From assembly GCF_044324875.1 (NCBI RefSeq), contig NZ_CP172185.1: 64,000 nucleotides of DNA; one strand, given 5' to 3'. The notes beneath the pieces were generated by a model. That model had not been told where the DNA came from. It did not search any database and saw nothing but the letters and a program-made list of their open reading frames with translations. A program made the position numbers and the translations under genes. This document shows, one piece after another, positions 5,490-64,000 of the stretch. This DNA is from Escherichia coli (GTDB taxonomy: Bacteria > Pseudomonadota > Gammaproteobacteria > Enterobacterales > Enterobacteriaceae). The stretch's first letter is position 1. Every line of letters begins with the position of its first letter.

Positions 5490-6901
5490 TGCGCGCTCCT
5501 TTTTCGCCGCGAAATAGCTACATTTTGATGCGTATCGTTCGGCACTCTGGCAAAGATGAACGCCGGAAGGGCGATGATAAACGCCATGCTAAGCCAGGTG
5601 TACATAAAGACGGTTTGTGTGGTGCCGCTGTCGACGCTGACATGCTGCGAACCAAAAAGTCCCAGCAACAGCCCGGCGATAGTGACGCCGATACTCATCG
5701 ACAATTGCATAATCATCGACAGCAGGCTGTTTCCGCTGCTCGCCAGATTGTCCGGGAGATCTTTCAGCGTCAGGGTGTTCATGGAGGAGAAACGGGTCGA
5801 GTTGACCATCCCTTGTAAAAACAGGACGAACGGCAAAACGTAGTACCAGCCCAACAGAGCGGTAGTCATAAACAATAGGGTGACCAGCGACAGACCCAGC
5901 GTGGTCGCTACCAGTACCCGACGATAACCAAAGCGATTCACTACCTGTACCACAATTCGCTTCATCCCCATGCTGCCGAGCACCATCGGGATCATCATCA
6001 GTCCGGCATGAAACGGTGAGAAGCCAAGGCCAATTTGCAGGAAAACCGGCGTCATAAAGGGCAACATGCCGCTACCGATACGTCCGGCAAAACTCCCCGC
6101 CAGGCCCAGCGAAAAGGTACGAGTACGGAACAGTTTCAGACTGAAAAGAGCGCGGTTGTTATTTCTGGCGTGCAGCAGATAAAGCACCAGTGCTACCACG
6201 CCAACTGCGACCAGGCCAGCAATCGCCAGCGGCGATAAACCTGTACCTTTACTGCCGTCCAGCGCCAGGGTTAATACCGCCATGCCAACCGCCAGCAATA
6301 AAAAGCCGGAGAGATCGAAGCGCCGCGTCTGCATGGTATAGTTCGGCATTAACATCAATGTGGCGATCGCGCCAATAATCCCCACCGGAATGTTGATTAA
6401 AAAGATCCAGTGCCACGACGCATATTCCACCAGCAGACCGCCGAGCGCCGGACCGAGCAGCGGACCGACCTGACCGGGTAACGTGACAAAGGTCATCGCC
6501 GCCATATACTGCTCGCGCGGTACGATTTTCATCACCGTCAACCTGCCGACCGGCACCATCATCGCACCGCCAACGCCCTGTAACGCGCGTGCCAGCAACA
6601 GTTCGTTCAGCGTGCCGGAAAGCGCGCAAAACAGTGAACCGAGAGTAAACAGTACGATGGCGGTAAAGAAAATATTGCGCACGCCGACTTTGTCCGCCAG
6701 CCAGCCGCTGGCGGGCAGCATCACCGCCACGGTCAGCACATAAGAGACAATGACCATGTGCATATGCAACGGACTTTCCCCGAGGCTTTGCGCCATTGAG
6801 GGAAGGGCGGTGTTTACGATGGTGGTGTCCAGCGACTGCATAAAGAAGCCGAAAGCCACAATCCACAATTGCCAGCGGGTGCTGTCGGGAAGATCTGTCA
6901 T
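5486..6901 (-). CDS. mdtD: MFS transporter MdtD
   Basis: 471-aa polytopic membrane protein with MFS-type motifs, located between mdtC and baeS as in the known mdtABCD-baeSR operon. Confidence 0.93.
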
Positions 6902-30454: not shown

Positions 30455-30493
30455 CAGTGTATTGGTAGCTAAAAAGCCAGGGGCGGTAGCGTG
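30455..30493 (+). promoter_or_regulatory. JUMPstart element with ops site (RfaH-dependent antitermination) in the colanic acid operon leader
   Basis: cagtgtattggtagctaaaaagccaggggcggtagcgtg contains the ops core GGCGGTAGCGTG (30482..30493), about 180 bp upstream of wza. Confidence 0.8.
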
Positions 30494-43431: not shown

Positions 43432-44868
43432 ATGGCGCAGTCGAAACTCTATCCAGTTGTGATGGCAGGTGGCTCCGGTAGCCGCTTATGGCCGCTTTCC
43501 CGCGTACTTTACCCCAAGCAGTTTTTATGCCTGAAAGGCGATCTCACCATGCTGCAAACCACCATCTGCCGCCTGAACGGCGTGGAGTGCGAAAGCCCGG
43601 TGGTGATTTGCAATGAGCAGCACCGCTTTATTGTCGCGGAACAGCTGCGTCAACTGAACAAACTTACCGAGAACATTATTCTCGAACCGGCAGGGCGAAA
43701 CACGGCACCTGCCATTGCGCTGGCGGCGCTGGCGGCAACACGTCATAGCCCGGAGAGCGACCCGTTAATGCTGGTATTGGCGGCGGATCATGTGATTGCC
43801 GATGAAGACGCGTTCCGTGCCGCCGTGCGTAATGCCATGCCATATGCCGAAGCGGGCAAGCTGGTGACCTTCGGCATTGTGCCGGATCTACCAGAAACCG
43901 GTTATGGCTATATTCGTCGCGGTGAAGTATCTGCGGGTGAGCAGGATACGGTGGCCTTTGAAGTGGCGCAGTTTGTCGAAAAACCGAATCTGGAAACCGC
44001 TCAGGCCTATGTGGCAAGCGGCGAATATTACTGGAACAGCGGTATGTTCCTGTTCCGCGCCGGACGCTATCTCGAAGAACTGAAAAAATATCGCCCGGAT
44101 ATTCTCGACGCCTGTGAAAAAGCGATGAGCGCCATCGATCCGGATCTCGATTTTATTCGTGTGGATGAAGAAGCGTTTCTCGCCTGCCCGGAAGAGTCGG
44201 TGGATTACGCAGTCATGGAACGTACGGCAGATGCTGTTGTGGTGCCGATGGATGCGGGCTGGAGCGATGTCGGTTCCTGGTCCTCTTTATGGGAGATCAG
44301 CGCCCACACCGCCGAGGGCAACGTTTGCCACGGCGATGTGATTAATCACAAAACTGAAAACAGCTATGTGTATGCCGAATCTGGCCTGGTCACCACCGTC
44401 GGGGTGAAAGATTTGGTGGTAGTGCAGACCAAAGATGCGGTGCTGATTGCTGACCGTAACGCGGTGCAGGATGTGAAAAAAGTGGTCGAGCAGATCAAAG
44501 CCGATGGTCGCCATGAGCATCGGGTGCATCGCGAAGTGTATCGTCCGTGGGGCAAATATGACTCTATCGACGCGGGCGACCGCTACCAGGTGAAACGCAT
44601 CACCGTGAAACCGGGCGAAGGCTTGTCGGTACAGATGCACCATCACCGCGCGGAACACTGGGTAGTGGTCGCGGGAACGGCAAAAGTCACCATTGATGGT
44701 GATATCAAACTGCTTGGTGAAAACGAGTCCATTTATATTCCGCTGGGGGCGACGCATTGCCTGGAAAACCCGGGGAAAATTCCGCTCGATTTAATTGAAG
44801 TGCGCTCCGGCTCTTATCTCGAGGAGGATGATGTGGTGCGCTTCGCGGATCGCTACGGGCGGGTGTAA
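43432..44868 (+). CDS. cpsB: mannose-1-phosphate guanylyltransferase (colanic acid copy)
   Basis: 478-aa ORF with [13 protein letters not shown] nucleotidyltransferase motif and C-terminal cupin ([17 protein letters not shown]). Confidence 0.95.
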
Positions 44869-45060: not shown

Positions 45061-46431
45061 ATGAAAAAATTAACCTGCTTTAAAGCCTATGATATTCGCG
45101 GGAAATTAGGCGAAGAACTGAATGAAGATATTGCCTGGCGTATTGGGCGTGCCTATGGCGAATTTCTCAAACCGAAAACCATTGTGTTAGGCGGTGATGT
45201 CCGCCTCACCAGCGAAATCTTAAAACTGGCGCTGGCAAAAGGTTTACAGGATGCGGGTGTCGATGTGCTGGATATTGGCATGTCCGGCACCGAAGAGATC
45301 TATTACGCCACGTTCCATCTCGGCGTGGATGGCGGCATCGAAGTCACTGCCAGCCATAATCCGATGGATTACAACGGCATGAAGCTGGTACGCGAAGGGG
45401 CTCGCCCGATCAGCGGCGATACCGGACTGCGCGACGTCCAGCGTCTGGCAGAAGCCAATGACTTCCCTCCTGTCGATGAAACCAAACGCGGTCGCTATCA
45501 GCAAATCAATCTGCGTGATGCTTACGTTGATCACCTGTTCGGTTATATCAACGTCAAAAACCTCACGCCGCTCAAGCTGGTGATTAACTCCGGGAACGGC
45601 GCAGCGGGTCCGGTAGTTGACGCCATTGAAGCCCGCTTTAAAGCCCTCGGCGCACCTGTGGAATTGATCAAAGTGCACAACACGCCGGACGGCAATTTCC
45701 CCAACGGTATTCCTAACCCGCTGCTGCCGGAATGCCGCGACGACACCCGCAATGAGGTCATCAAACACGGCGCGGATATGGGCATTGCCTTTGATGGCGA
45801 TTTTGACCGCTGCTTCCTGTTTGACGAAAAAGGGCAGTTTATCGAGGGCTACTACATTGTCGGCCTGCTGGCAGAAGCGTTCCTCGAAAAAAATCCTGGC
45901 GCGAAGATCATCCACGATCCACGTCTCTCCTGGAACACCGTTGATGTGGTGACTGCTGCTGGCGGCACGCCGGTAATGTCGAAAACCGGACACGCCTTTA
46001 TTAAAGAACGTATGCGCAAGGAAGACGCCATCTATGGTGGCGAAATGAGCGCTCACCATTACTTCCGCGATTTCGCTTACTGCGACAGCGGCATGATCCC
46101 GTGGCTGCTGGTCGCCGAACTGGTGTGCCTGAAAGGAAAAACGCTGGGCGAACTGGTGCGCGACCGGATGGCAGCGTTTCCGGCAAGCGGTGAGATCAAC
46201 AGCAAACTGGCGCACCCCGTTGAGGCGATTAACCGCGTCGAACAGCATTTTAGCCGCGAGGCGCTGGCGGTGGATCGCACCGATGGCATCAGCATGACCT
46301 TTGCCGACTGGCGCTTTAATCTGCGCTCCTCCAACACCGAACCGGTGGTGCGGTTGAATGTGGAATCGCGCGGTGATGTGCCGCTGATGGAAGCGCGAAC
46401 GCGAACTCTGCTGGCGTTGCTGAACGAGTAA
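45061..46431 (+). CDS. cpsG: phosphomannomutase (colanic acid copy)
   Basis: ATG at 45061 gives [29 protein letters not shown] (456 aa) with phosphohexomutase active-site Ser motif (TASHNP). The upstream extension was rejected. Confidence 0.93.
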
Positions 46432-53808: not shown

Positions 53809-54702
53809 ATGACGAATTTAAAAGCAGTTATTCCTGTAGCGGGTCTTGGGATGCATATGTTGCCTGCCACTAAGGCGATTCCCAAAGAGATGCTACCGAT
53901 CGTCGACAAGCCAATGATTCAGTACATTGTTGACGAGATTGTGGCTGCAGGGATCAAAGAAATCCTCCTGGTAACTCACGCGTCCAAGAACGCGGTCGAA
54001 AACCACTTCGACACCTCTTATGAATTAGAATCTCTCCTTGAACAGCGCGTGAAGCGTCAACTACTGGCGGAAGTGCAGTCCATCTGTCCGCCGGGCGTGA
54101 CCATTATGAACGTGCGTCAGGGCGAACCTTTAGGTTTGGGCCACTCCATTTTATGTGCACGACCTGCCATTGGTGACAACCCATTTGTCGTGGTACTGCC
54201 AGACGTTGTTATCGATGACGCCAGCGCCGATCCGCTACGCTATAACCTTGCTGCCATGATTGCGCGCTTCAACGAAACGGGCCGCAGCCAGGTGCTGGCA
54301 AAACGTATGCCGGGTGACCTCTCTGAATACTCCGTCATTCAGACCAAAGAACCACTGGATCGTGAAGGTAAAGTCAGCCGCATCGTCGAATTTATCGAAA
54401 AACCGGATCAGCCGCAGACGCTGGACTCAGACATCATGGCCGTTGGTCGCTATGTGCTTTCTGCCGATATTTGGCCGGAACTTGAACGCACGCAACCTGG
54501 TGCATGGGGGCGTATTCAGCTGACTGATGCTATTGCCGAACTGGCGAAAAAACAGTCCGTTGATGCCATGCTGATGACCGGCGACAGCTACGACTGCGGT
54601 AAAAAAATGGGCTATATGCAGGCGTTTGTGAAGTATGGACTGCGCAACCTGAAGGAAGGGCCAAAGTTCCGTAAGAGCATTGAGAAGTTGCTCGGGGAAT
54701 AG
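53809..54702 (+). CDS. galF: UTP-glucose-1-phosphate uridylyltransferase regulatory subunit GalF
   Basis: ATG at 53809 gives [39 protein letters not shown] (297 aa). The upstream GTG extension was rejected. Confidence 0.95.
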
Positions 54703-54962
54703 ATCCCAAGCCAATGTAACAATAATTTAGATAAATAGCGGCAGCTAACATCCCGGCGTCTATGCTTTAAACAAAGGAATGTTACTGTCGTTTTTCTTTT
54801 TAAAACAAAGAATAACAACGAGTTAACCTACTAAGTTTAATCTATTTTTTGTTGGATTTATCCTTGTTTCTGACAGCATTTGGTAAGACAATTGGCGTTT
54901 GAATTTAAGATAGCTTTGCGATAGCTAGCGGGGCGGGGTACATCTTTGGCATTTTGCTAGTG

Positions 54963-54996
54963 CACTGGTAGCTGTTAAGCCAGGGGCGGTAGCGTG
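54963..54996 (+). promoter_or_regulatory. JUMPstart element with ops site upstream of the O-antigen gene cluster
   Basis: cactggtagctgttaagccaggggcggtagcgtg contains the ops core GGCGGTAGCGTG (54985..54996), in the galF to O-antigen intergenic region. Confidence 0.85.
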
Positions 54997-55095
54997 GTAA
55001 GATTGTGTTTATATGATGCGTTCTCAAAATAAGAAATAATAATCCTGACTATTTTTATACTATTGATAATATCTGAAATAAACTTAAGAGCAAAC

Positions 55096-56100
55096 ATGAA
55101 AGTAATTGTAAATAATTTTTTTGATGGTATTTTGAAAAGAGGAATACCGATCTATACTTCTGAACTTGTGCAAAAGTTAAGAGACAATAATGTTCAGGTT
55201 ATTTATGTTGCATGTCCAAAAGCATTCCATAAGCTGCCTTCATGGTTTCTGAATGTTCTTTTTATAATAGTAGAGCAGCTTTTAATACCAATTATGGGTA
55301 TATTTTATAGAACTAAGTATAATATATATCCCTATAATAGTAGTTCCATCATTGACTTGTTATTAGGTAAGGCAATTGTTATAATTCATGACTTCATTAG
55401 TCTTAAGAAAAATAAACGAAATCTTGCTGCCATTTATGTGAAAGTCTGTATTTATTTTTCATCTTTTTTAGCAAAGAAAGTAATATTTATTTCTCAAAGC
55501 ACTCAGCGAGTATCTAAGAGAATATCGCTATTTAAGTGTATAGAATCTATCCTGCTCCCAAATCCATTTTTCTCATTTGAGAAAATTGCTAATGTTACCG
55601 AAATAAAAGATCTTGGATATTTACTTCTAGTTTCAGGTTTAGGGGATAATAAGGATCTAGGCACAGCTCTGGACTATTATTTTTCAATCCCAAGGGAAGA
55701 AAGAATACCATTAAAAATATTAGGTTGTGGGAATGGTATTAGCAAGGTTAACGACTTAATTGATGGGCGGGATACAGATAAAGAAATTGAAATTATTGGT
55801 TTTGTTTCTTTAGAGGAAGTCGTCAAACTATATTGTAATTCTAAAATTGTTTGGGCTCATTCGCTTGCCGAGGGGTATGGAAGGACTTTAGCTGAAGCAA
55901 AACTCACATGCAAAAATGTTATATGCACACGGATCTCTGCTTTCCGCGAACAAAAGGATTCGAATATTTTCTTTTATACTTACTATTCTGAGTATTATGA
56001 AGTCTATTCATACTTGGTAGATAATTCACCCAGTGTCGAAAGGAAAGCTCTGCATGAACATATTTTATTTGAAAATGAATTGAGAAAGATTTATGAGTAA
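55096..56100 (+). CDS. O-antigen glycosyltransferase, probable GT4 family
   Basis: ATG at 55096 (MKVIVNNFFDG..., preceded by TAAGAG) chosen over the ORF-track start at 55063. EX7E-like region AHSLAEGYGRTLAEA. Very AT-rich codon usage. Confidence 0.75.
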   Translation: MKVIVNNFFDGILKRGIPIYTSELVQKLRDNNVQVIYVACPKAFHKLPSWFLNVLFIIVEQLLIPIMGIFYRTKYNIYPYNSSSIIDLLLGKAIVIIHDFISLKKNKRNLAAIYVKVCIYFSSFLAKKVIFISQSTQRVSKRISLFKCIESILLPNPFFSFEKIANVTEIKDLGYLLLVSGLGDNKDLGTALDYYFSIPREERIPLKILGCGNGISKVNDLIDGRDTDKEIEIIGFVSLEEVVKLYCNSKIVWAHSLAEGYGRTLAEAKLTCKNVICTRISAFREQKDSNIFFYTYYSEYYEVYSYLVDNSPSVERKALHEHILFENELRKIYE

Positions 56101-57295
56101 TATTGATATAAATAAGAAACAGATATTAGTTTTGACTCCACGGTTCCCGTTTCCTGTCATTGGTGGGGATCGATTACGTATCTATAAGATCTGTAAAGAA
56201 CTGTCTAAGCATTATGATCTTACGTTGCTGAGTCTGTGTGATAAACGCGAAGAGCTCAACTATGAATATGATCGTGAAGTTTTTAGTAGTGTTCACAGAG
56301 TATATCTTTCAAAGAAAAAATCTATTTTAAATGTCATATTCTCTTTGTTTTCAAATACTCCCCTACAGATTGGGTATTATAAATCTAAAGAATTTGAAGA
56401 TAAACTTAAGCAGTTATTACCTGAACATTCTGCAACTCTTTCACATTTGATAAGGGTTGGTGATTATGTGAAAGAGAATAAAGATATAAATTTTTTAGAG
56501 ATGACCGATGCCATTTCACTTAATTATAAACGAGTAAAGGAAAAAGCATCTTTATTGAGTTTAAAAACATTTGTATATTCTTTTGAACAAAAAAGACTCG
56601 AACGATATGAGCGAACTATAAATAACAAGTTCAGCTTGACTACTTTGGTATCACAGGTTGACTCCGATTATTTATATCCAGACCGTCCGAATAATGTATT
56701 AGTCTGTGGAAATGGTGTTGATGCCGTTAGCTTACCTTTTTCAGAACGAAAAATAGCTAAAGATAAAAAGATAACCCTTGTATTTATAGGTAATTTATAT
56801 TCTTTGCAAAATATGGATGGTGTGAGATGGTTCACCAAGGAAGTTTTACCATTTCTTAACAAGCATGGTAATTTTGAATTTAAGGTCATCGGACGTATTA
56901 CAGATAAAGATAAGAGTTGGTTAGAAAGCCAGCCTGGCGTTGTTGTCACAGGTGAAGTTGATAGCATAACTTATGCAGCAGCTGATGGGCATATTGGTGT
57001 ATGTCCTATTAGATTAGGGGCAGGTATCCAAAATAAGGTACTTGAATATATGGCGTTGGGATTACCTTGTATCTCTTCTACTGTAGGCTTTGAAGGCTTG
57101 GGAGCAGAGGAGGGTAAGGAGATTTATGTTGCCAATACAAAAGAAGAATATTTACGTGTATTAAATTATTTTATAACAAATCTGGATAAATATACCGAAA
57201 CAGCATTAGTTGCGAAAAAGTTTATCGGTGAGAATTTTTCATGGGAAGCTAAATTGAGCCCATATATCCAGAAAATTAAGGAGTCTGTTAAATAA
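56093..57295 (+). CDS. O-antigen glycosyltransferase, GT4 family
   Basis: 400-aa ORF; start overlaps the previous gene. GT4 C-terminal region ([33 protein letters not shown]). Confidence 0.8.
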
Positions 57296-57296
57296 A

Positions 57297-58712
57297 ATGA
57301 TTATCCCAATTATTATGGCCGGTGGTTCTGGTACTCGCTTATGGCCTCTTTCGCGTTCGTTATACCCGAAACAATTTTTATCATTGATTAATGAAAATAG
57401 TTTGCTCCAGGAAACGTTGAAGAGACTTGATGGATTAAATTGTTTGCCTCCTGTCATTGTTAGCAATAATGAGCATAGATTTATTGTTGCTGAACAATTG
57501 CGACAGTTCGGTGTGGATGACTTCCAGATTATTCTAGAACCTGTAGGTAGAAATACTGCGCCCGCCGTTGCGCTGGCTGCTCTAAAGTCTCTAGAACTCC
57601 ATGGCGATCATCATATGCTGGTTCTTGCTGCTGACCATGCTATTCAGGATATTGAAGCCTTCCATGCAGCTGTTTTAGCTGCAGAACAAGAGTCCGTTGA
57701 CAATAAGTTAGTGACTTTTGGCATCGTCCCGACCAAACCTGAAACTGGGTATGGCTATATTAAAAAGGGCGAACAAGTTAAAAACTCTGTATTTAAAGTA
57801 AATTCTTTCGTCGAAAAACCTGATTTAGAAACGGCTAAAAATTATCTCGAACAAAAATGCTATTTGTGGAATAGTGGTATGTTCATGTTCAAGGCGAGCG
57901 TATATTTAGATGAATTGAAAAAATTTCGCCCTGATATTTTAGCAGCGTGTAAAGAGTCGCTTTCCAGTGCTAGTACTGATCTAGATTTTATCAGATTAAA
58001 TTCTGATGTCTTTGCAGAATGTCCCGATGAGTCAATTGATTATGCGGTAATGGAAAAAACTCAGGATTGTGTAGTTATTCCACTTGATGCTGACTGGAGT
58101 GACATCGGTTCATGGACATCACTTTGGGAAATATCAGAGAAAGATGAACATGAAAACGTATCGCATGGCGATGTAATTAACTATAACAGCAGGAACAACT
58201 ACATTTACTCTGAAGGTTCACTGATCAGCACTGTAGGAGTTAATAACCTTATTATAGTTCAAACTAAAGATGCGCTCCTGGTAGCACAGCAAGACAACGT
58301 ACAAGACATAAAGAAGATTGTCGAAATTCTTAAAAAGCAAAAACGTAGCGAACATATATCCCATCGCGAAGTCTATCGTCCTTGGGGACGTTATGATTCT
58401 GTAGAACGTGGCGACCGTTATCAGGTAAAGCGTATTACCGTTAAGCCTGGTGAATGTCTCTCAACACAAATGCATCATCATCGAGCTGAGCATTGGGTGG
58501 TTGTCGCTGGTACTGCAAAGGTGACTTGCGGCGAACGCACTTTTTTCGTCACTGAAAATGAGTCAACTTTCATACCAATTGGCACAGTTCATACCTTGGA
58601 AAATCCAGGAAAGATACCATTAGAAGTAATTGAGATTCAGTCGGGTGTATATCTAGGTGATGATGATATTGTGCGCCTAAGTGATAAATATGGTCGTGTT
58701 GAGGATAAATAA
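57297..58712 (+). CDS. manC: mannose-1-phosphate guanylyltransferase (O-antigen copy)
   Basis: 471-aa ORF; N-terminus [28 protein letters not shown] and C-terminal cupin nearly identical in motif to cpsB, but in AT-rich codon usage. Confidence 0.9.
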
Positions 58713-58716
58713 TTAT

Positions 58717-60138
58717 ATGAATATTACCAATGATGTAATTAAAAATAGCGGAATTGCATTTGGTACAAGTGGTGCTCGTGGATTAGTGAAAGATTTTACA
58801 CCCAACGTGTGTGCTGCATTCACTTATGCTTTTATCGATGTAATGATGAAGGATTTTTCTTTTAAAGAGGTTGCGCTCGCAATAGATAATCGCCCAAGCA
58901 GCTATGCTATGGCACAAGCTTGCGCAGCAGCATTGTTGGAATGTAGTATTAAACCTATTTACTACGGTGTAATTCCAACTCCAGCTTTGGCAAATCAAGC
59001 GATTGCCGATGGGATTCCTGCAATAATGGTTACTGGAAGTCATATTCCATTTGATAGAAATGGTTTGAAATTCTATCGTCCAGACGGGGAAATTTCAAAA
59101 GAAAATGAGAACAGCATTATACATGCTGAAAAAGAGTATCCTGATGTAACTGTATTGCCAGAATTACAATGTTCAAAGCGTGCCGCTGATACTTATATCG
59201 AGAGAAACACTTCAATTTTTTCAAATATATTTAAAGGTAAACGTATCGGGATTTATGAACATTCAAGTGCGGGACGGGATCTTTATTCAGAAATATTCAG
59301 TAAGCTTGGTGCTGAAGTTGTAAGTATTGGTAGAAGTGATGAGTTTGTGCCTATTGATACTGAAGCAGTATCAAAAGAAGATGAAGAAAAAGCTTTACAC
59401 TGGTCATCTGAGTATGACCTCGATATGATTTTTTCTACCGATGGTGATGGCGATCGTCCTTTGGTTGCTGACGAAAATGGCGTTTGGTTACGGGGTGATA
59501 TATTAGGACTATTTTGCTCAAAGGCAATGAATATTGAAGCGGTAGCTGTACCTGTAAGTTGTAATACGGTTATTCAGACTTGCGGGTGGTTTAATCATGT
59601 AACGCTGACTAAAATTGGTTCACCATACGTCATTTCAGCGTTTGATTCTCTGAATAATAGTTTTGATAGGGTTGCAGGGTTTGAGGCTAACGGTGGGTAT
59701 CTTTTAGGTAGCGATGTAAATTATAACAGCGGTATGATTAAAGCGCTTCCAACAAGAGATGCTGTTTTGCCTGCTTTAATGGTACTGGCACTGGCTATAA
59801 AAAATAATGTGACTATTTCAAAACTCTTGGCGGAGTTGCCACCACGATTTACCTACTCAAATAGAGTTCAAAATTTTGCAACAAGCAAAAGTAAAAGCAT
59901 TATCGCGTCAGCTCAAGAAAATCCTCAAGAATTTATCGAAAGAATAGGCTTTGTCGATCTTCATGTACAATCGGTGGATACAATTGACGGGTTAAGATTG
60001 ACACTAAGTGATGGTTCAATAATCCATTTGCGACCGTCAGGCAACGCACCTGAATTGCGATGCTATGCAGAAGCAGATAACATAATAAAAGCTGAAAAAT
60101 TAGTGTTAGAAGTTTTGCATAAAGTTACTCTTTTGTAA
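58717..60138 (+). CDS. manB: phosphomannomutase-type phosphohexomutase (O-antigen copy)
   Basis: ATG at 58717 gives [29 protein letters not shown]...; active-site region [17 protein letters not shown]. The ORF-track start at 58681 is a GTG inside manC. Gene symbol assigned by function and cluster context, not by match to a specific known locus. Confidence 0.8.
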
Positions 60139-60321
60139 AAAAATATAAACTTTTTTCTACTCTTGAGCGGTTTGTCATTTAACCGCTCAGTAATAGATTG
60201 TTTATAAATTGTTTATATTTAGCATTGGTGTTTTTATTTGCGTTCATCCCGAATAAGAGATTGTAAAATTAACTGTTTCTTATTTTTCAAATGAGTTACT
60301 TCACTAGTAAAGCTAATTACT

Positions 60322-61653
60322 ATGCATAAGCAATATTATTCATTATTGTGCAATAAAATACAGTTTAAACATCTGGCTATATATTTTTCTGTATTTCTTT
60401 CACTATCCTCATGTTTCTTGTGGGGAGGGGCGGATACATTTGTATCGCAAGTGTATATTGATATTTTAGCCACTATATCTACAGCGCTATTAGTTGTTTT
60501 GATGTTCTATTATTATATTAATAGAGTTCGCTATTTATCACTAACCTTACTTTTTGCATTCGTTTTTTCTTTGATTATTGGTTTGCCATCGATTTATCTT
60601 TACTATTTTAAAAACGCAAATCATGGGTTTGAAATAATTTGTATCTGGGGGATGTTGATCAATTCCATCCTTTACTTGCAAACAACAGAGACTGTCATAA
60701 AAGAAGAAAAAAGATATTTAACTAGTTTATTTTATATTTTGTTTTCTATTGTTGCACTGTGTCAATTATACAAAATATTAATTTATCTTATGTTTATATT
60801 GAATTCAGGAGAAGGGCATTTAGCAATTTATACTGAAAGCGAAGAATTGCTATCCCAAGTTCCATTTTTTATTCGTGCTATTAGTGGTTTTGCAGTTGTA
60901 ATGTCATTGTCCACTTTTTATTTTAAAACACCGACCTACATTAAAGTTATTGCATTTGTTTTACTTGCATCTGATTTAGCTATTGGAATACGTAATAAGT
61001 TTTTCTTTTCAGTGATTTGTATTTTTATACTATATATGTACTCTAATGAGTATAGAGTAAGAAATTTATTTAAGCAACTCTCAAAACCAATATTTCTCAT
61101 CGCCGGTTTTTTATGCTTCTCGATGGTATCGTATTTCCGTGAAGGGTACCAAATCGATTTTATGATTTATATTGGCATTGTTTTAGATTCGCTATCCTCT
61201 ACTCTTGGGGGGATGCAGAATTTGTTTGATATGCAATCATCAGGATGGGATCAACTTCATCCCGCTGTGGTATTCACACAAGTATTACCGCTAAGCGGTC
61301 TTGGTTTTCTTGATGATCAACAAATCGCAAAAGATTTTTCAATAATTGTTTTAGGTGATGTATCCTCTGGTATTGCGTTGTCATCTTCAGGATTGTTAGA
61401 GTCATCGTTGCTGAGTCTAAACTTGGGAGTGATTATTTATTTACTGTATTTATCAGGGGTGATGCTTTTTATTAAATGGGGACTAAATAATCAACGGATA
61501 ATAATAAACTTTGTTGCCATCTCCATGATATCTGGATTTTTTTATGCTGTTCGTGGTGAACTGATTTTGCCATTGGCTTTTCTTCTAAAATCATTGCCGA
61601 TTGTTCTTATATCTCCATTACTTGTTAAAAATAAAATTTATCATGGTCAGTAA
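60322..61653 (+). CDS. wzy: probable O-antigen polymerase (Wzy-type polytopic membrane protein)
   Basis: 443-aa strongly hydrophobic, very AT-rich ORF with about 10-12 predicted TM segments and no MOP-family N-terminal motif. Assigned by exclusion and cluster context. Confidence 0.6.
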   Translation: MHKQYYSLLCNKIQFKHLAIYFSVFLSLSSCFLWGGADTFVSQVYIDILATISTALLVVLMFYYYINRVRYLSLTLLFAFVFSLIIGLPSIYLYYFKNANHGFEIICIWGMLINSILYLQTTETVIKEEKRYLTSLFYILFSIVALCQLYKILIYLMFILNSGEGHLAIYTESEELLSQVPFFIRAISGFAVVMSLSTFYFKTPTYIKVIAFVLLASDLAIGIRNKFFFSVICIFILYMYSNEYRVRNLFKQLSKPIFLIAGFLCFSMVSYFREGYQIDFMIYIGIVLDSLSSTLGGMQNLFDMQSSGWDQLHPAVVFTQVLPLSGLGFLDDQQIAKDFSIIVLGDVSSGIALSSSGLLESSLLSLNLGVIIYLLYLSGVMLFIKWGLNNQRIIINFVAISMISGFFYAVRGELILPLAFLLKSLPIVLISPLLVKNKIYHGQ

Positions 61654-61694
61654 GTGGTTTATTTTTCGACCAGGATCTCACCAGTAGGCATGAC

Positions 61695-62930
61695 ATGATC
61701 AAAGAAATTTTCTCCGATGGCATTTTTTCGCTATTTAATAAAATATGTTACTTCGGTTTTAAAACACTTGCAATAATTCTGATTACTCGTTCCTTAGGAG
61801 AAGATGTAGGCGGAGAGTTCATTTTTTTAGTTGGTTTTCTCGAAGTCCTTCGGGTGGTTACTGATTTTGGTGTGGATCTGTTTGTTATAAAAAAATATAA
61901 TGATTCTACAGATAAAATAAAACTATTAAATGTAACGTTTGCACAAAAAATTCTTTCTGGAGTAATTGTTTTACTACTGTTTTGTTTGTATTCTTTTGTT
62001 CAGGGTTATCAATATAATGTCTATATTCCTATTGTGTTAGCCTTACCTGTTGCTTTATTTTTTAATTTCTCAAATAGCTATTTTCAATCTCTCAATTCCA
62101 ATAAATCTCTCACGTTTCCGATCGCAATTGCATCTATTGCAACGTGTACGATCTTCGCTATTCAGTATTTTTTAAACGTTAAATTTAACGCATGGGATTA
62201 CCTGTGTGTTGAACTATTATTCGTATCGCTGGTTACACTAAAACTATTCGTTAGTGTCAAGTTTAGGTTTATTAGAACGTCAGCTTTTGATGTGCTAATG
62301 TCAATTCTTTCTTTATATAAATATACATTAAGTATAGGTCTTACAGCTGTTGTTGTAATTATTTATAGCCGTATAGATAATTTTTATCTCAAGACATTTG
62401 CCCCAGGGGATCTTGCAGCATATGGCCAGATATTTAGGATGGTTGATCCACTGGTTATGGTTTCTTCTGTATTTTCTACAGTTGCCTATGCAAGATTTTG
62501 CCGAATTAACTTACAAGAAAAAAATGCTTTTACTAAGGTGTTTCAGTTCCTGTTATGTATTGTGGCATATGGCGTGCTGAGTTCATTAGTTTATTTCTTT
62601 ATAATAAAATACCTGGGTCATTTTGTATTGATTTCTAATGTTAATAATGATTTCTTGATAATGATGTTCTTGATTGTTGCATGTGTGAAATGTATCAATG
62701 GTGGTACAACTGCAATAATTCAGTCACAGGGGTTTTATAAAGTGGGTTTGTATGTTTCGTATGTTTGCATTTTGACATCGATACCAACTATGTATTTCTT
62801 AATAATGAAGTACGGTGTTAAAGGTGCTGCTATGACGATTCTGCTTGTAGAGTGTATTAGTTTCATATTACTTCTCTGCAGCTTTTTTATGATAAAAAAG
62901 ATGCGTCCTAAAAAAACATTCGAAATGTAA
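61695..62930 (+). CDS. wzx: probable O-antigen flippase (Wzx, MOP family)
   Basis: 411-aa polytopic membrane ORF with N-terminal FNKICYFGFKTLAIILITRSLGEDVGGEF resembling the Wzx/polysaccharide-biosynthesis-protein N-terminal motif. Confidence 0.65.
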   Translation: MIKEIFSDGIFSLFNKICYFGFKTLAIILITRSLGEDVGGEFIFLVGFLEVLRVVTDFGVDLFVIKKYNDSTDKIKLLNVTFAQKILSGVIVLLLFCLYSFVQGYQYNVYIPIVLALPVALFFNFSNSYFQSLNSNKSLTFPIAIASIATCTIFAIQYFLNVKFNAWDYLCVELLFVSLVTLKLFVSVKFRFIRTSAFDVLMSILSLYKYTLSIGLTAVVVIIYSRIDNFYLKTFAPGDLAAYGQIFRMVDPLVMVSSVFSTVAYARFCRINLQEKNAFTKVFQFLLCIVAYGVLSSLVYFFIIKYLGHFVLISNVNNDFLIMMFLIVACVKCINGGTTAIIQSQGFYKVGLYVSYVCILTSIPTMYFLIMKYGVKGAAMTILLVECISFILLLCSFFMIKKMRPKKTFEM

Positions 62931-63082
62931 TCAATGAGTCCTCTTTGAATAGAATTAGTTTGTTCTATTTATGAACACTTAGCTTGAGTAAGTTCTAACA
63001 TAGATTACTAATTGTTTGATACTATCTGCTTTACAAGCATAACCGCGTATGTCGCGGTGACCACACCTGACAGGAGTATGTA

Positions 63083-64000
63083 ATGTCCAAGCAACAGATC
63101 GGCGTCGTCGGTATGGCAGTGATGGGGCGCAACCTGGCGCTCAACATCGAAAGCCGTGGTTATACCGTCTCCGTCTTCAACCGCTCCCGCGAAAAAACTG
63201 AAGAAGTTGTTGCCGAGAACCCGGGTAAGAAACTGGTTCCTTATTACACGGTGAAAGAGTTTGTCGAGTCTCTTGAAACCCCTCGTCGCATCCTGTTAAT
63301 GGTGAAAGCAGGTGCAGGCACGGATGCTGCTATTGATTCCCTCAAACCATATCTCGATAAAGGTGACATCATCATTGATGGTGGTAACACCTTCTTCCAG
63401 GACACTATTCGTCGTAATCGTGAGCTTTCAGCAGAGGGCTTTAACTTCATCGGTACCGGTGTTTCCGGCGGTGAAGAGGGGGCGTTGAAAGGACCTTCCA
63501 TCATGCCTGGTGGGCAGAAAGAAGCCTATGAACTGGTTGCACCAATTCTGACCAAAATCGCCGCAGTAGCTGAAGACGGTGAGCCATGCGTTACCTATAT
63601 TGGTGCCGATGGCGCAGGTCACTATGTGAAGATGGTTCACAACGGTATTGAATACGGCGATATGCAGCTGATTGCTGAAGCCTATTCTCTGCTAAAAGGT
63701 GGCCTGAACCTCACCAACGAAGAACTGGCGCAGACTTTTACCGAGTGGAATAACGGTGAACTGAGCAGCTACCTGATCGACATCACCAAAGATATCTTCA
63801 CCAAAAAAGATGAAGACGGTAACTACCTGGTTGATGTGATTCTGGATGAAGCAGCAAACAAAGGTACGGGCAAATGGACCAGCCAGAGTGCGCTGGATCT
63901 CGGCGAACCGCTGTCGCTGATAACCGAGTCTGTGTTTGCACGTTATATCTCTTCTCTGAAAGATCAGCGCGTTGCCGCGTCTAAAGTTCTCTCTGGCCCG
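63083..64000 (+). CDS. gnd: 6-phosphogluconate dehydrogenase (decarboxylating), 5' part (gene runs off the window end)
   Basis: CAGGAG SD then ATG at 63083 gives [35 protein letters not shown]..., the classical Gnd N-terminus with Rossmann motif. No stop before the window end. Confidence 0.95.

Follow-up and report, generated by a model that had tools for sequence, protein, structure and literature searches.

The window analysed here is a 64,000-nt stretch of DNA. Its 3′ half corresponds to the part of the Escherichia coli chromosome that runs from the colanic acid cluster through galF and the O-antigen cluster into the start of gnd, as judged from the open reading frame map and an essentially identical genome annotated in RefSeq. 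All features described below lie on the plus strand. The colanic acid genes follow the order wza ... gmd-fcl-gmm-wcaI-cpsB-cpsG-wcaJ-wzxC-wcaKLM, and six genes are found between galF and gnd in the arrangement galF-GT-GT4-manC-manB-wzy-wzx-gnd. The two operons have separate JUMPstart elements. The leader of the O-antigen operon contains a JUMPstart/ops element (54958..54996; GGCGGTAGCGTG), the site of RfaH-dependent antitermination, which matched Rfam RF01707 with 59.2 bits (gathering score 35). The colanic acid counterpart, located upstream of wza at 30455..30493, scored 57.3 bits against the same family.

The first two O-antigen genes encode glycosyltransferases. The first (55096..56100), a presumed mannosyltransferase, is named 'glycosyltransferase' at the equivalent position in RefSeq and shares 76% identity with its counterpart in Salmonella enterica locus L088; an open reading frame with a TTG start at 55063 is an upstream extension of this gene. 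The second (56093..57295), annotated in RefSeq and assigned to the GT4 family, is 78.8% identical to its L088 counterpart. They are followed by manC (57297..58712), encoding a 471-residue mannose-1-phosphate guanylyltransferase with a C-terminal type II phosphomannose isomerase (PMI)/cupin domain, by manB (58717..60138), encoding an RfbK-type phosphomannomutase of 473 residues counted from its ATG, and by wzy (60322..61653) and wzx (61695..62930), annotated in RefSeq as O-antigen polymerase and flippase. A longer frame with a GTG start at 58681 differs from the RefSeq start of manB; the 473-residue product matches the database protein P0001 at 100% identity. As the original prediction had stated, the window holds two mannose-activation gene pairs, the other being the colanic acid genes cpsB (43432..44868; 478 residues), identified by its equivalog model and by annotation, and cpsG (45061..46431; 456 residues beginning MKKLTCF), a phosphomannomutase of the PMM/PGM AlgC/XanA type according to its profile and PDB matches. 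A TTG frame from 45013 is an upstream extension of cpsG.

Positions 54700-64000 showed ∼100% DNA identity to annotated O17/O44/O73/O77/O106 clusters, including that of strain O17_K12a, and the region was present at ≥99% identity in 93 of 5,426 complete E. coli genomes. Both wzx and wzy are named 'O17/O44/O73/O77/O106 family' by PGAP, and these family-specific genes, together with the gene content between galF and gnd, place the cluster in the O77 group. We detected no difference from the published O77-group cluster (Wang et al. 2007, Microbiology 153:2159; PMC7685785), of which the window is an instance. These clusters are >99% identical among the five serogroups (Wang et al. 2007, cited in PMC7685785). 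Their common backbone, ->6)-Man-(a1->2)-Man-(a1->2)-Man-(b1->3)-GlcNAc-(a1->, contains three D-Man residues and a single GlcNAc (PMC7685785, citing Wang et al. 2007), and two of the Man residues are added by a single glycosyltransferase (PMC7685785). The presence of GDP-mannose genes in the cluster is accounted for by these three mannoses. The Glc side branches of the O-units depend on gtr genes elsewhere on the chromosome (PMC7685785); because these distinguishing genes sit outside the window, it fits all five serogroups alike.

The ManC of the O-antigen cluster and CpsB are 60% identical over 473 aligned positions. ManC carries the Pfam domains NTP_transferase, ManC beta-helix and MannoseP_isomer and clearly exceeds the cut-off of the GMP/PMI model TIGR01479 (754.6 against 372.95 bits), but remains below that of the CpsB equivalog NF012004 (706.9 against 859 bits), for which CpsB itself scores 1114. 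The long identical motifs that had been noted in both proteins are indeed there, and the quoted block starting HREVYRPWG falls inside the alignment. They do not, however, indicate a special tie to cpsB. The codon-aligned genes share 59% of their nucleotides and 34% of third positions, with no sub-window of raised DNA identity and a longest exact shared run of 12 nt. Within the conserved block, 85% protein identity goes with a third-position identity of just 0.25–0.33, which makes the motifs uninformative on any particular manC-cpsB relation. We read them as conserved sequence from the active site in the cupin/PMI domain (PF01050), maintained by purifying selection and owing nothing to recent exchange. 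Gene conversion between manC and cpsB was considered as a source of the motifs and rejected, given the lack of a raised-identity segment and the low third-position identity.

CpsB is 70–72% identical to ManC proteins of Photorhabdus, an Aeromonadaceae MAG and Alishewanella whose genes directly precede one for an RfbK-type ManB, and is closer to these than to the ManC of the window (61%). In a neighbour-joining tree of a small sample of sequences, the window ManC joined the L088 ManC in 500 of 500 bootstraps and a further E. coli O-antigen ManC in 474; it never grouped with CpsB (0/500). The description of manC as a cpsB paralogue in the original prediction says merely that it is a member of the single ManC family.

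In contrast to the ManC proteins, the two phosphomannomutases are clearly dissimilar, as had been predicted. Identity between ManB and CpsG is only 24% (E 4e-9), and the sequences show both the N-termini cited in the prediction and the differing motifs at the TASHNP position. As judged by E-value, the homology of either pair of proteins lies far outside what chance would give. On a trimmed alignment ManB shares 22% identity with CpsG, 24% with E. coli GlmM and 21% with Pgm, so that it appears about as distant from CpsG as from GlmM or Pgm. All four domains, PGM_PMM_I to IV (PF02878, PF02879, PF02880 and PF00408), are found above their gathering scores, and the catalytic loops are intact (TGS108HIP, D242GDGDR, GFE323ANGG and R439PSGNAP) and invariant across eight enterobacterial relatives. 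ManB thus has what is expected of an alpha-D-phosphohexomutase: the four domains, the catalytic Ser, the metal-binding DxDxDR, the sugar-binding Glu and the R-x-S-x-x-x-P phosphate loop. CpsG and its AlgC/XanA-type PMM/PGM relatives have the superfamily, the four domains, the loop positions and the reaction in the GDP-mannose pathway in common with ManB. They differ in their 22–24% identity and in the loops themselves, where CpsG has TASHNP for TGSHIP, GGEMSAH for GFEANGG and RSSNTEP for RPSGNAP, with DGDFDR as its metal-binding loop.

Profile and structure searches separated the two enzymes in the same manner. Against the CpsG model NF011943 (cut-off 801), CpsG scored 1051 bits and ManB 22; against the PMM-PGM model NF007088 ManB reached 61 bits (cut-off 618). 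ManB met no NCBIfam cut-off, its best match being the archaeal GlmM model with 170 bits (cut-off 439). Its nearest structure is PDB 4hjh, deposited as 'Phosphomannomutase', which aligned end-to-end at E 1e-95 with the catalytic loops all conserved, and no AlgC or XanA structure was among its PDB matches at E≤1e-5. The nearest structures to CpsG are XanA (5bmn, 3e-170) and AlgC (1k35, 2e-56). On this sequence evidence ManB and CpsG belong to different phosphohexomutase subfamilies, in agreement with the predicted difference in subtype.

The suggestion that ManB resembles Salmonella RfbK also held. An RfbK sequence used purely as a search probe retrieved the database protein P0121 (477 residues, 2,343 member sequences), which is 99% identical to the probe; all RfbK comparisons were made with P0121 and not with the probe. 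P0121 is named RfbK by NCBI and is 62% identical to ManB over its full length (474 aligned positions). Its gene lies in the context wzx-GT-GT-GT-manC-manB-wbaP-gnd-ugd-wzz, in agreement with the published layout of galactose-initiated Salmonella clusters, in which manBC have a GC content of 36–41% (PMC3715488). The cluster-representative locus (L087) has two epimerase genes ahead of wzx, a gene order that looks like group D1, and so is not LT2 itself; the manB genes of Salmonella groups B and D are 98–99.9% identical (PMC3715488). A neighbour-joining tree built from 25 sequences separated the 22 RfbK-type proteins, the window ManB among them, from CpsG, GlmM and Pgm in 500 of 500 bootstraps, and paired the window ManB with Salmonella P0003 in 498. 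The deep order of the four phosphohexomutase subfamilies was poorly resolved, with 355, 111 and 34 of 500 bootstraps for the three possible topologies, and the least supported of these (34) was the one joining the RfbK type and CpsG as sister subfamilies. Similarity to RfbK, placement in its clade and adjacency to manC in a polysaccharide cluster all assign ManB to the RfbK/ManB type.

From the homology to RfbK and 4hjh and from the gene context, ManB would be expected to convert mannose-6-phosphate to mannose-1-phosphate. One could instead suppose that 'manB' encodes another phosphohexomutase, GlmM-like or PGM-like, and that CpsG supplies the mannose-1-phosphate, since the best NCBIfam matches are to GlmM models (170 and 110 bits, all below cut-off) and the PDB matches after 4hjh are mostly GlmM entries. 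We consider this very improbable: the match to 4hjh, a phosphomannomutase, is ∼70 orders of magnitude better than that to any GlmM, ManB is 62% identical to an NCBI-named RfbK, manB consistently adjoins manC, and the O-unit contains three mannoses. Salmonella group B RfbK was also reportedly expressed by Elling et al. in 1996 and found to have PMM activity, which counts against this proposal as well.

The composition of the pair follows the O-antigen cluster and not the colanic acid genes. Whereas cpsB and cpsG have 55% GC (GC3 0.61–0.64), manC has 40% (GC3 0.32) and manB 38% (GC3 0.26), and the rest of the O-antigen cluster lies at 30–34%. The nearest relative cluster is that of Salmonella enterica L088, the locus that carries P0003. 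It has the same six-gene order (galF-GT-GT-manC-manB-wzy-wzx-gnd), with protein identities of 76, 79, 83, 75.5, 70 and 74% along the cluster, and both its ManB (498/500) and its ManC (500/500) are mutual nearest relatives of the window proteins in the trees. It differs from the window in this protein divergence of 17–30% and in transposase remnants after wzx. By gene order L088 is presumably the Salmonella O6,14 (group H) cluster, which Wang in 2007 is said to have linked to O77.

The pairing of manC with an RfbK-type manB is also found well beyond these two clusters. The next ManB relatives, at 63–68% identity, are from Photobacterium, Aeromonas, Vibrio, Citrobacter and similar genera. In a genome scan with eight aligned ManBs of the RfbK type from enterobacteria, the 600 matching stretches listed were filled with marine Gammaproteobacteria and did not include Salmonella LT2. 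Of these, 80 loci from other species were kept, and manC was immediately upstream of manB in most of them. Within E. coli, an RfbK-type manB was detectable in 332 of 5,426 genomes, comprising the 93 of the O77 group and 239 others at 60–80% identity. We inspected five of the latter, and in all of them the gene lies in a different O-antigen cluster (O141, O126, O115 or one of two unnamed types) and immediately follows a manC. Salmonella RfbK/RfbM of the galactose-initiated groups A, B, D and E resemble the window pair in their phosphomannomutase subfamily, their identical catalytic loops, their order of manC then manB and their low GC content (36–41% in PMC3715488, 38–40% in the window). However, the window ManC is just 57% identical to RfbM, and rfbM and rfbK overlap and are followed by wbaP, in contrast to the 4-nt gap and the downstream wzy found here.

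These observations support acquisition of the O-antigen manC-manB by horizontal transfer and not by duplication of cpsB/cpsG, as the original prediction had proposed; the direction of the transfer we infer. The divergence of the two pairs is far from similar, 60% identity for ManC/CpsB against 24% for ManB/CpsG, and could suggest a hybrid origin in which manC was copied from cpsB and manB alone was imported and joined to it. Exchange of man genes between colanic acid and O-antigen clusters is indeed documented elsewhere, the O-antigen manB of O157 being >95% identical to cpsG (PMC3158064). Nevertheless we give a hybrid origin only a few chances in a hundred. manC has the same low GC content as manB and the rest of the cluster, contains no segment of raised identity to cpsB, and encodes a protein 83% identical to the L088 ManC, with both genes keeping their partners there. 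In other genera, moreover, an RfbK-type manB usually follows immediately after manC, and ManCs from other genera are as near or nearer to CpsB, at up to 72% identity. The asymmetry arises because ManC forms a single family in bacteria whereas phosphomannomutases fall into two distantly related subfamilies (CpsG/AlgC/XanA PMM/PGM and RfbK/ManB), and it does not mean that manC and manB had different histories within the O-antigen cluster. Tandem duplication of cpsB-cpsG inside E. coli followed by divergence in place, for which one could cite the common manC-then-manB order, the ∼13-kb spacing on one strand and the 60% identity of the ManC copies, can be practically discounted, as ManB is no nearer to CpsG than to GlmM or Pgm and shares a clade (500/500) with RfbK and dozens of proteins from Gammaproteobacteria, the GC contents differ, third positions are saturated, and ManC never joined CpsB in the bootstraps.

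We therefore favour, with a probability of about 0.93, the reading that the manC-manB module (57297-60138) supplies GDP-mannose for the O77-group O-antigen operon to which it belongs, and that it arrived horizontally with the cluster and is not a duplicate of cpsB/cpsG. The pair would have come with the O-antigen cluster as a manC-manB cassette of a kind common in Gammaproteobacteria. ManB is predicted to convert mannose-6-phosphate to mannose-1-phosphate via a phosphoserine (Ser108) and Mg2+, and ManC to convert the product to GDP-mannose. The two glycosyltransferases would then use GDP-mannose to build the Man-Man-Man-GlcNAc O-unit, which Wzx would flip and Wzy polymerise. The low-GC operon has its own JUMPstart and cpsB/cpsG lie in a separately controlled operon, suggesting that the O-antigen pair is expressed independently and that O-antigen synthesis does not depend on cpsB/cpsG. 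Since the cps operon is under Rcs control and largely silent at 37 °C, a pair of its own would give the O-antigen a constitutive supply of GDP-mannose.

A second GDP-mannose pair with an RfbK-type mutase is real, but such pairs are already well documented and commonplace in enterobacterial O-antigen loci: what is seen here is the O77-group cluster as published, with a mutase of the long-known RfbK type. Stevenson in 1991 and Jensen and Reeves in 2001, from the Reeves laboratory, reportedly described two mannose pathways, cps and rfb, as well as low-GC O-antigen man genes of foreign origin. Both points are supported also by PMC3715488 and PMC7685785. The result matters little beyond correct annotation, although the region illustrates how O-antigen clusters bring their own horizontally acquired sugar-nucleotide genes beside the housekeeping-like colanic acid copies. 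Recombination between cpsG and a colanic-acid-like O-antigen manB deletes or converts the region in O14 (PMC7685785) and O157 (PMC3158064); the manB of the window and cpsG are so unlike that they cannot recombine in this way. A megablast search with cpsG gave matches at 5,710 places across 4,691 genomes, and the excess of ∼1,000 places in this hit count is consistent with second cpsG-like copies. The O77 group is of some current public-health relevance, independent of the manC-manB finding, as a haemolytic uraemic syndrome (HUS) outbreak in France in 2025 was caused by STEC O77g:H18 (PMC13188871).

The identity of CpsB, whose partner is CpsG, to ManCs beside RfbK-type ManBs (70–72%) suggests that ManC may, in the course of evolution, have repeatedly exchanged a mutase of one subfamily for one of the other, a non-orthologous displacement within the GDP-mannose module. 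We advance this tentatively and think it rather less probable than its opposite; such swapping may already be described in Jensen and Reeves 2001. If the pattern seen for CpsB were systematic, ManC phylogeny would be decoupled from mutase type, and the mutase types might differ in function, for example as strict PMM and bifunctional PMM/PGM.

A scan of the O-antigen operon for promoters and terminators gave counts equal to those in shuffled sequence. An Rfam match to sR14 inside wzy (22 bits, below the gathering score) was dismissed as chance. The end of manC and the start of manB are separated by 4 nt and a GAGGA lies 11 nt before the manB ATG, so the two genes are probably co-translated. The 183-nt spacer between manB and wzy contains a 10-bp hairpin (60163..60190; RNA fold of the spacer z = −4.3), which lies in a 54-bp segment that is missing from the corresponding position in L088.

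Comparison of the mannose-activation proteins suggests that the phosphomannomutase type paired with a ManC is no guide to how closely ManC proteins are related. CpsB, encoded in the colanic acid cluster (43432-44868), shares 69-72% identity with the ManC proteins of three loci from other genera (L023, Photorhabdus; L029, an Aeromonadaceae MAG; and L058, Alishewanella), and in all three loci the manC gene lies directly 5′ of an RfbK-type manB. The O-antigen ManC of the window itself is less close to CpsB (61%).

The two mannose gene pairs belong to separate RfaH-dependent operons, given one JUMPstart/ops element (Rfam RF01707) per operon: one ahead of wza (30455-30493, 57 bits) and one ahead of the O-antigen operon (54958-54996, 59 bits). 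In megablast searches of complete E. coli genomes, cpsG (45061-46431) was matched at ≥99% identity in only 64 genomes and at 95-99% in 4,569, and about 735 complete genomes gave no match whatever. The colanic acid genes adjoining the O-antigen locus are unusually polymorphic, as is expected from recombination around this locus.

For three genes the mechanical ORF call is an upstream extension of the RefSeq gene. It begins at GTG 58681 for manB (RefSeq ATG 58717), at TTG 45013 for cpsG (ATG 45061) and at TTG 55063 for the first glycosyltransferase (ATG 55096). Homologues also agree with the RefSeq starts of manB and cpsG.

The 183-nt spacer between manB and wzy (60139-60321) folds far more strongly than shuffled sequence (z=−4.3) and contains a 10-bp hairpin (UUGAGCGGUU...AACCGCUCAG; 60163-60190). 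Because this hairpin lacks a T-run, it looks unlike an intrinsic terminator. A role in mRNA stability or processing is possible, as is an origin as an assembly scar. The 54-bp segment that holds the hairpin is absent from the Salmonella enterica counterpart of the O-antigen cluster (L088). Remnants of transposase genes, namely DUF4096 and DDE_3 fragments, lie between wzx and gnd in L088 (12359-13944 of that locus); the E. coli window has none.

The O-antigen cluster contains only two glycosyltransferase genes (55096-57295) for three mannosyl linkages; the literature accounts for this mismatch by the transfer of two Man residues by one enzyme (PMC7685785).
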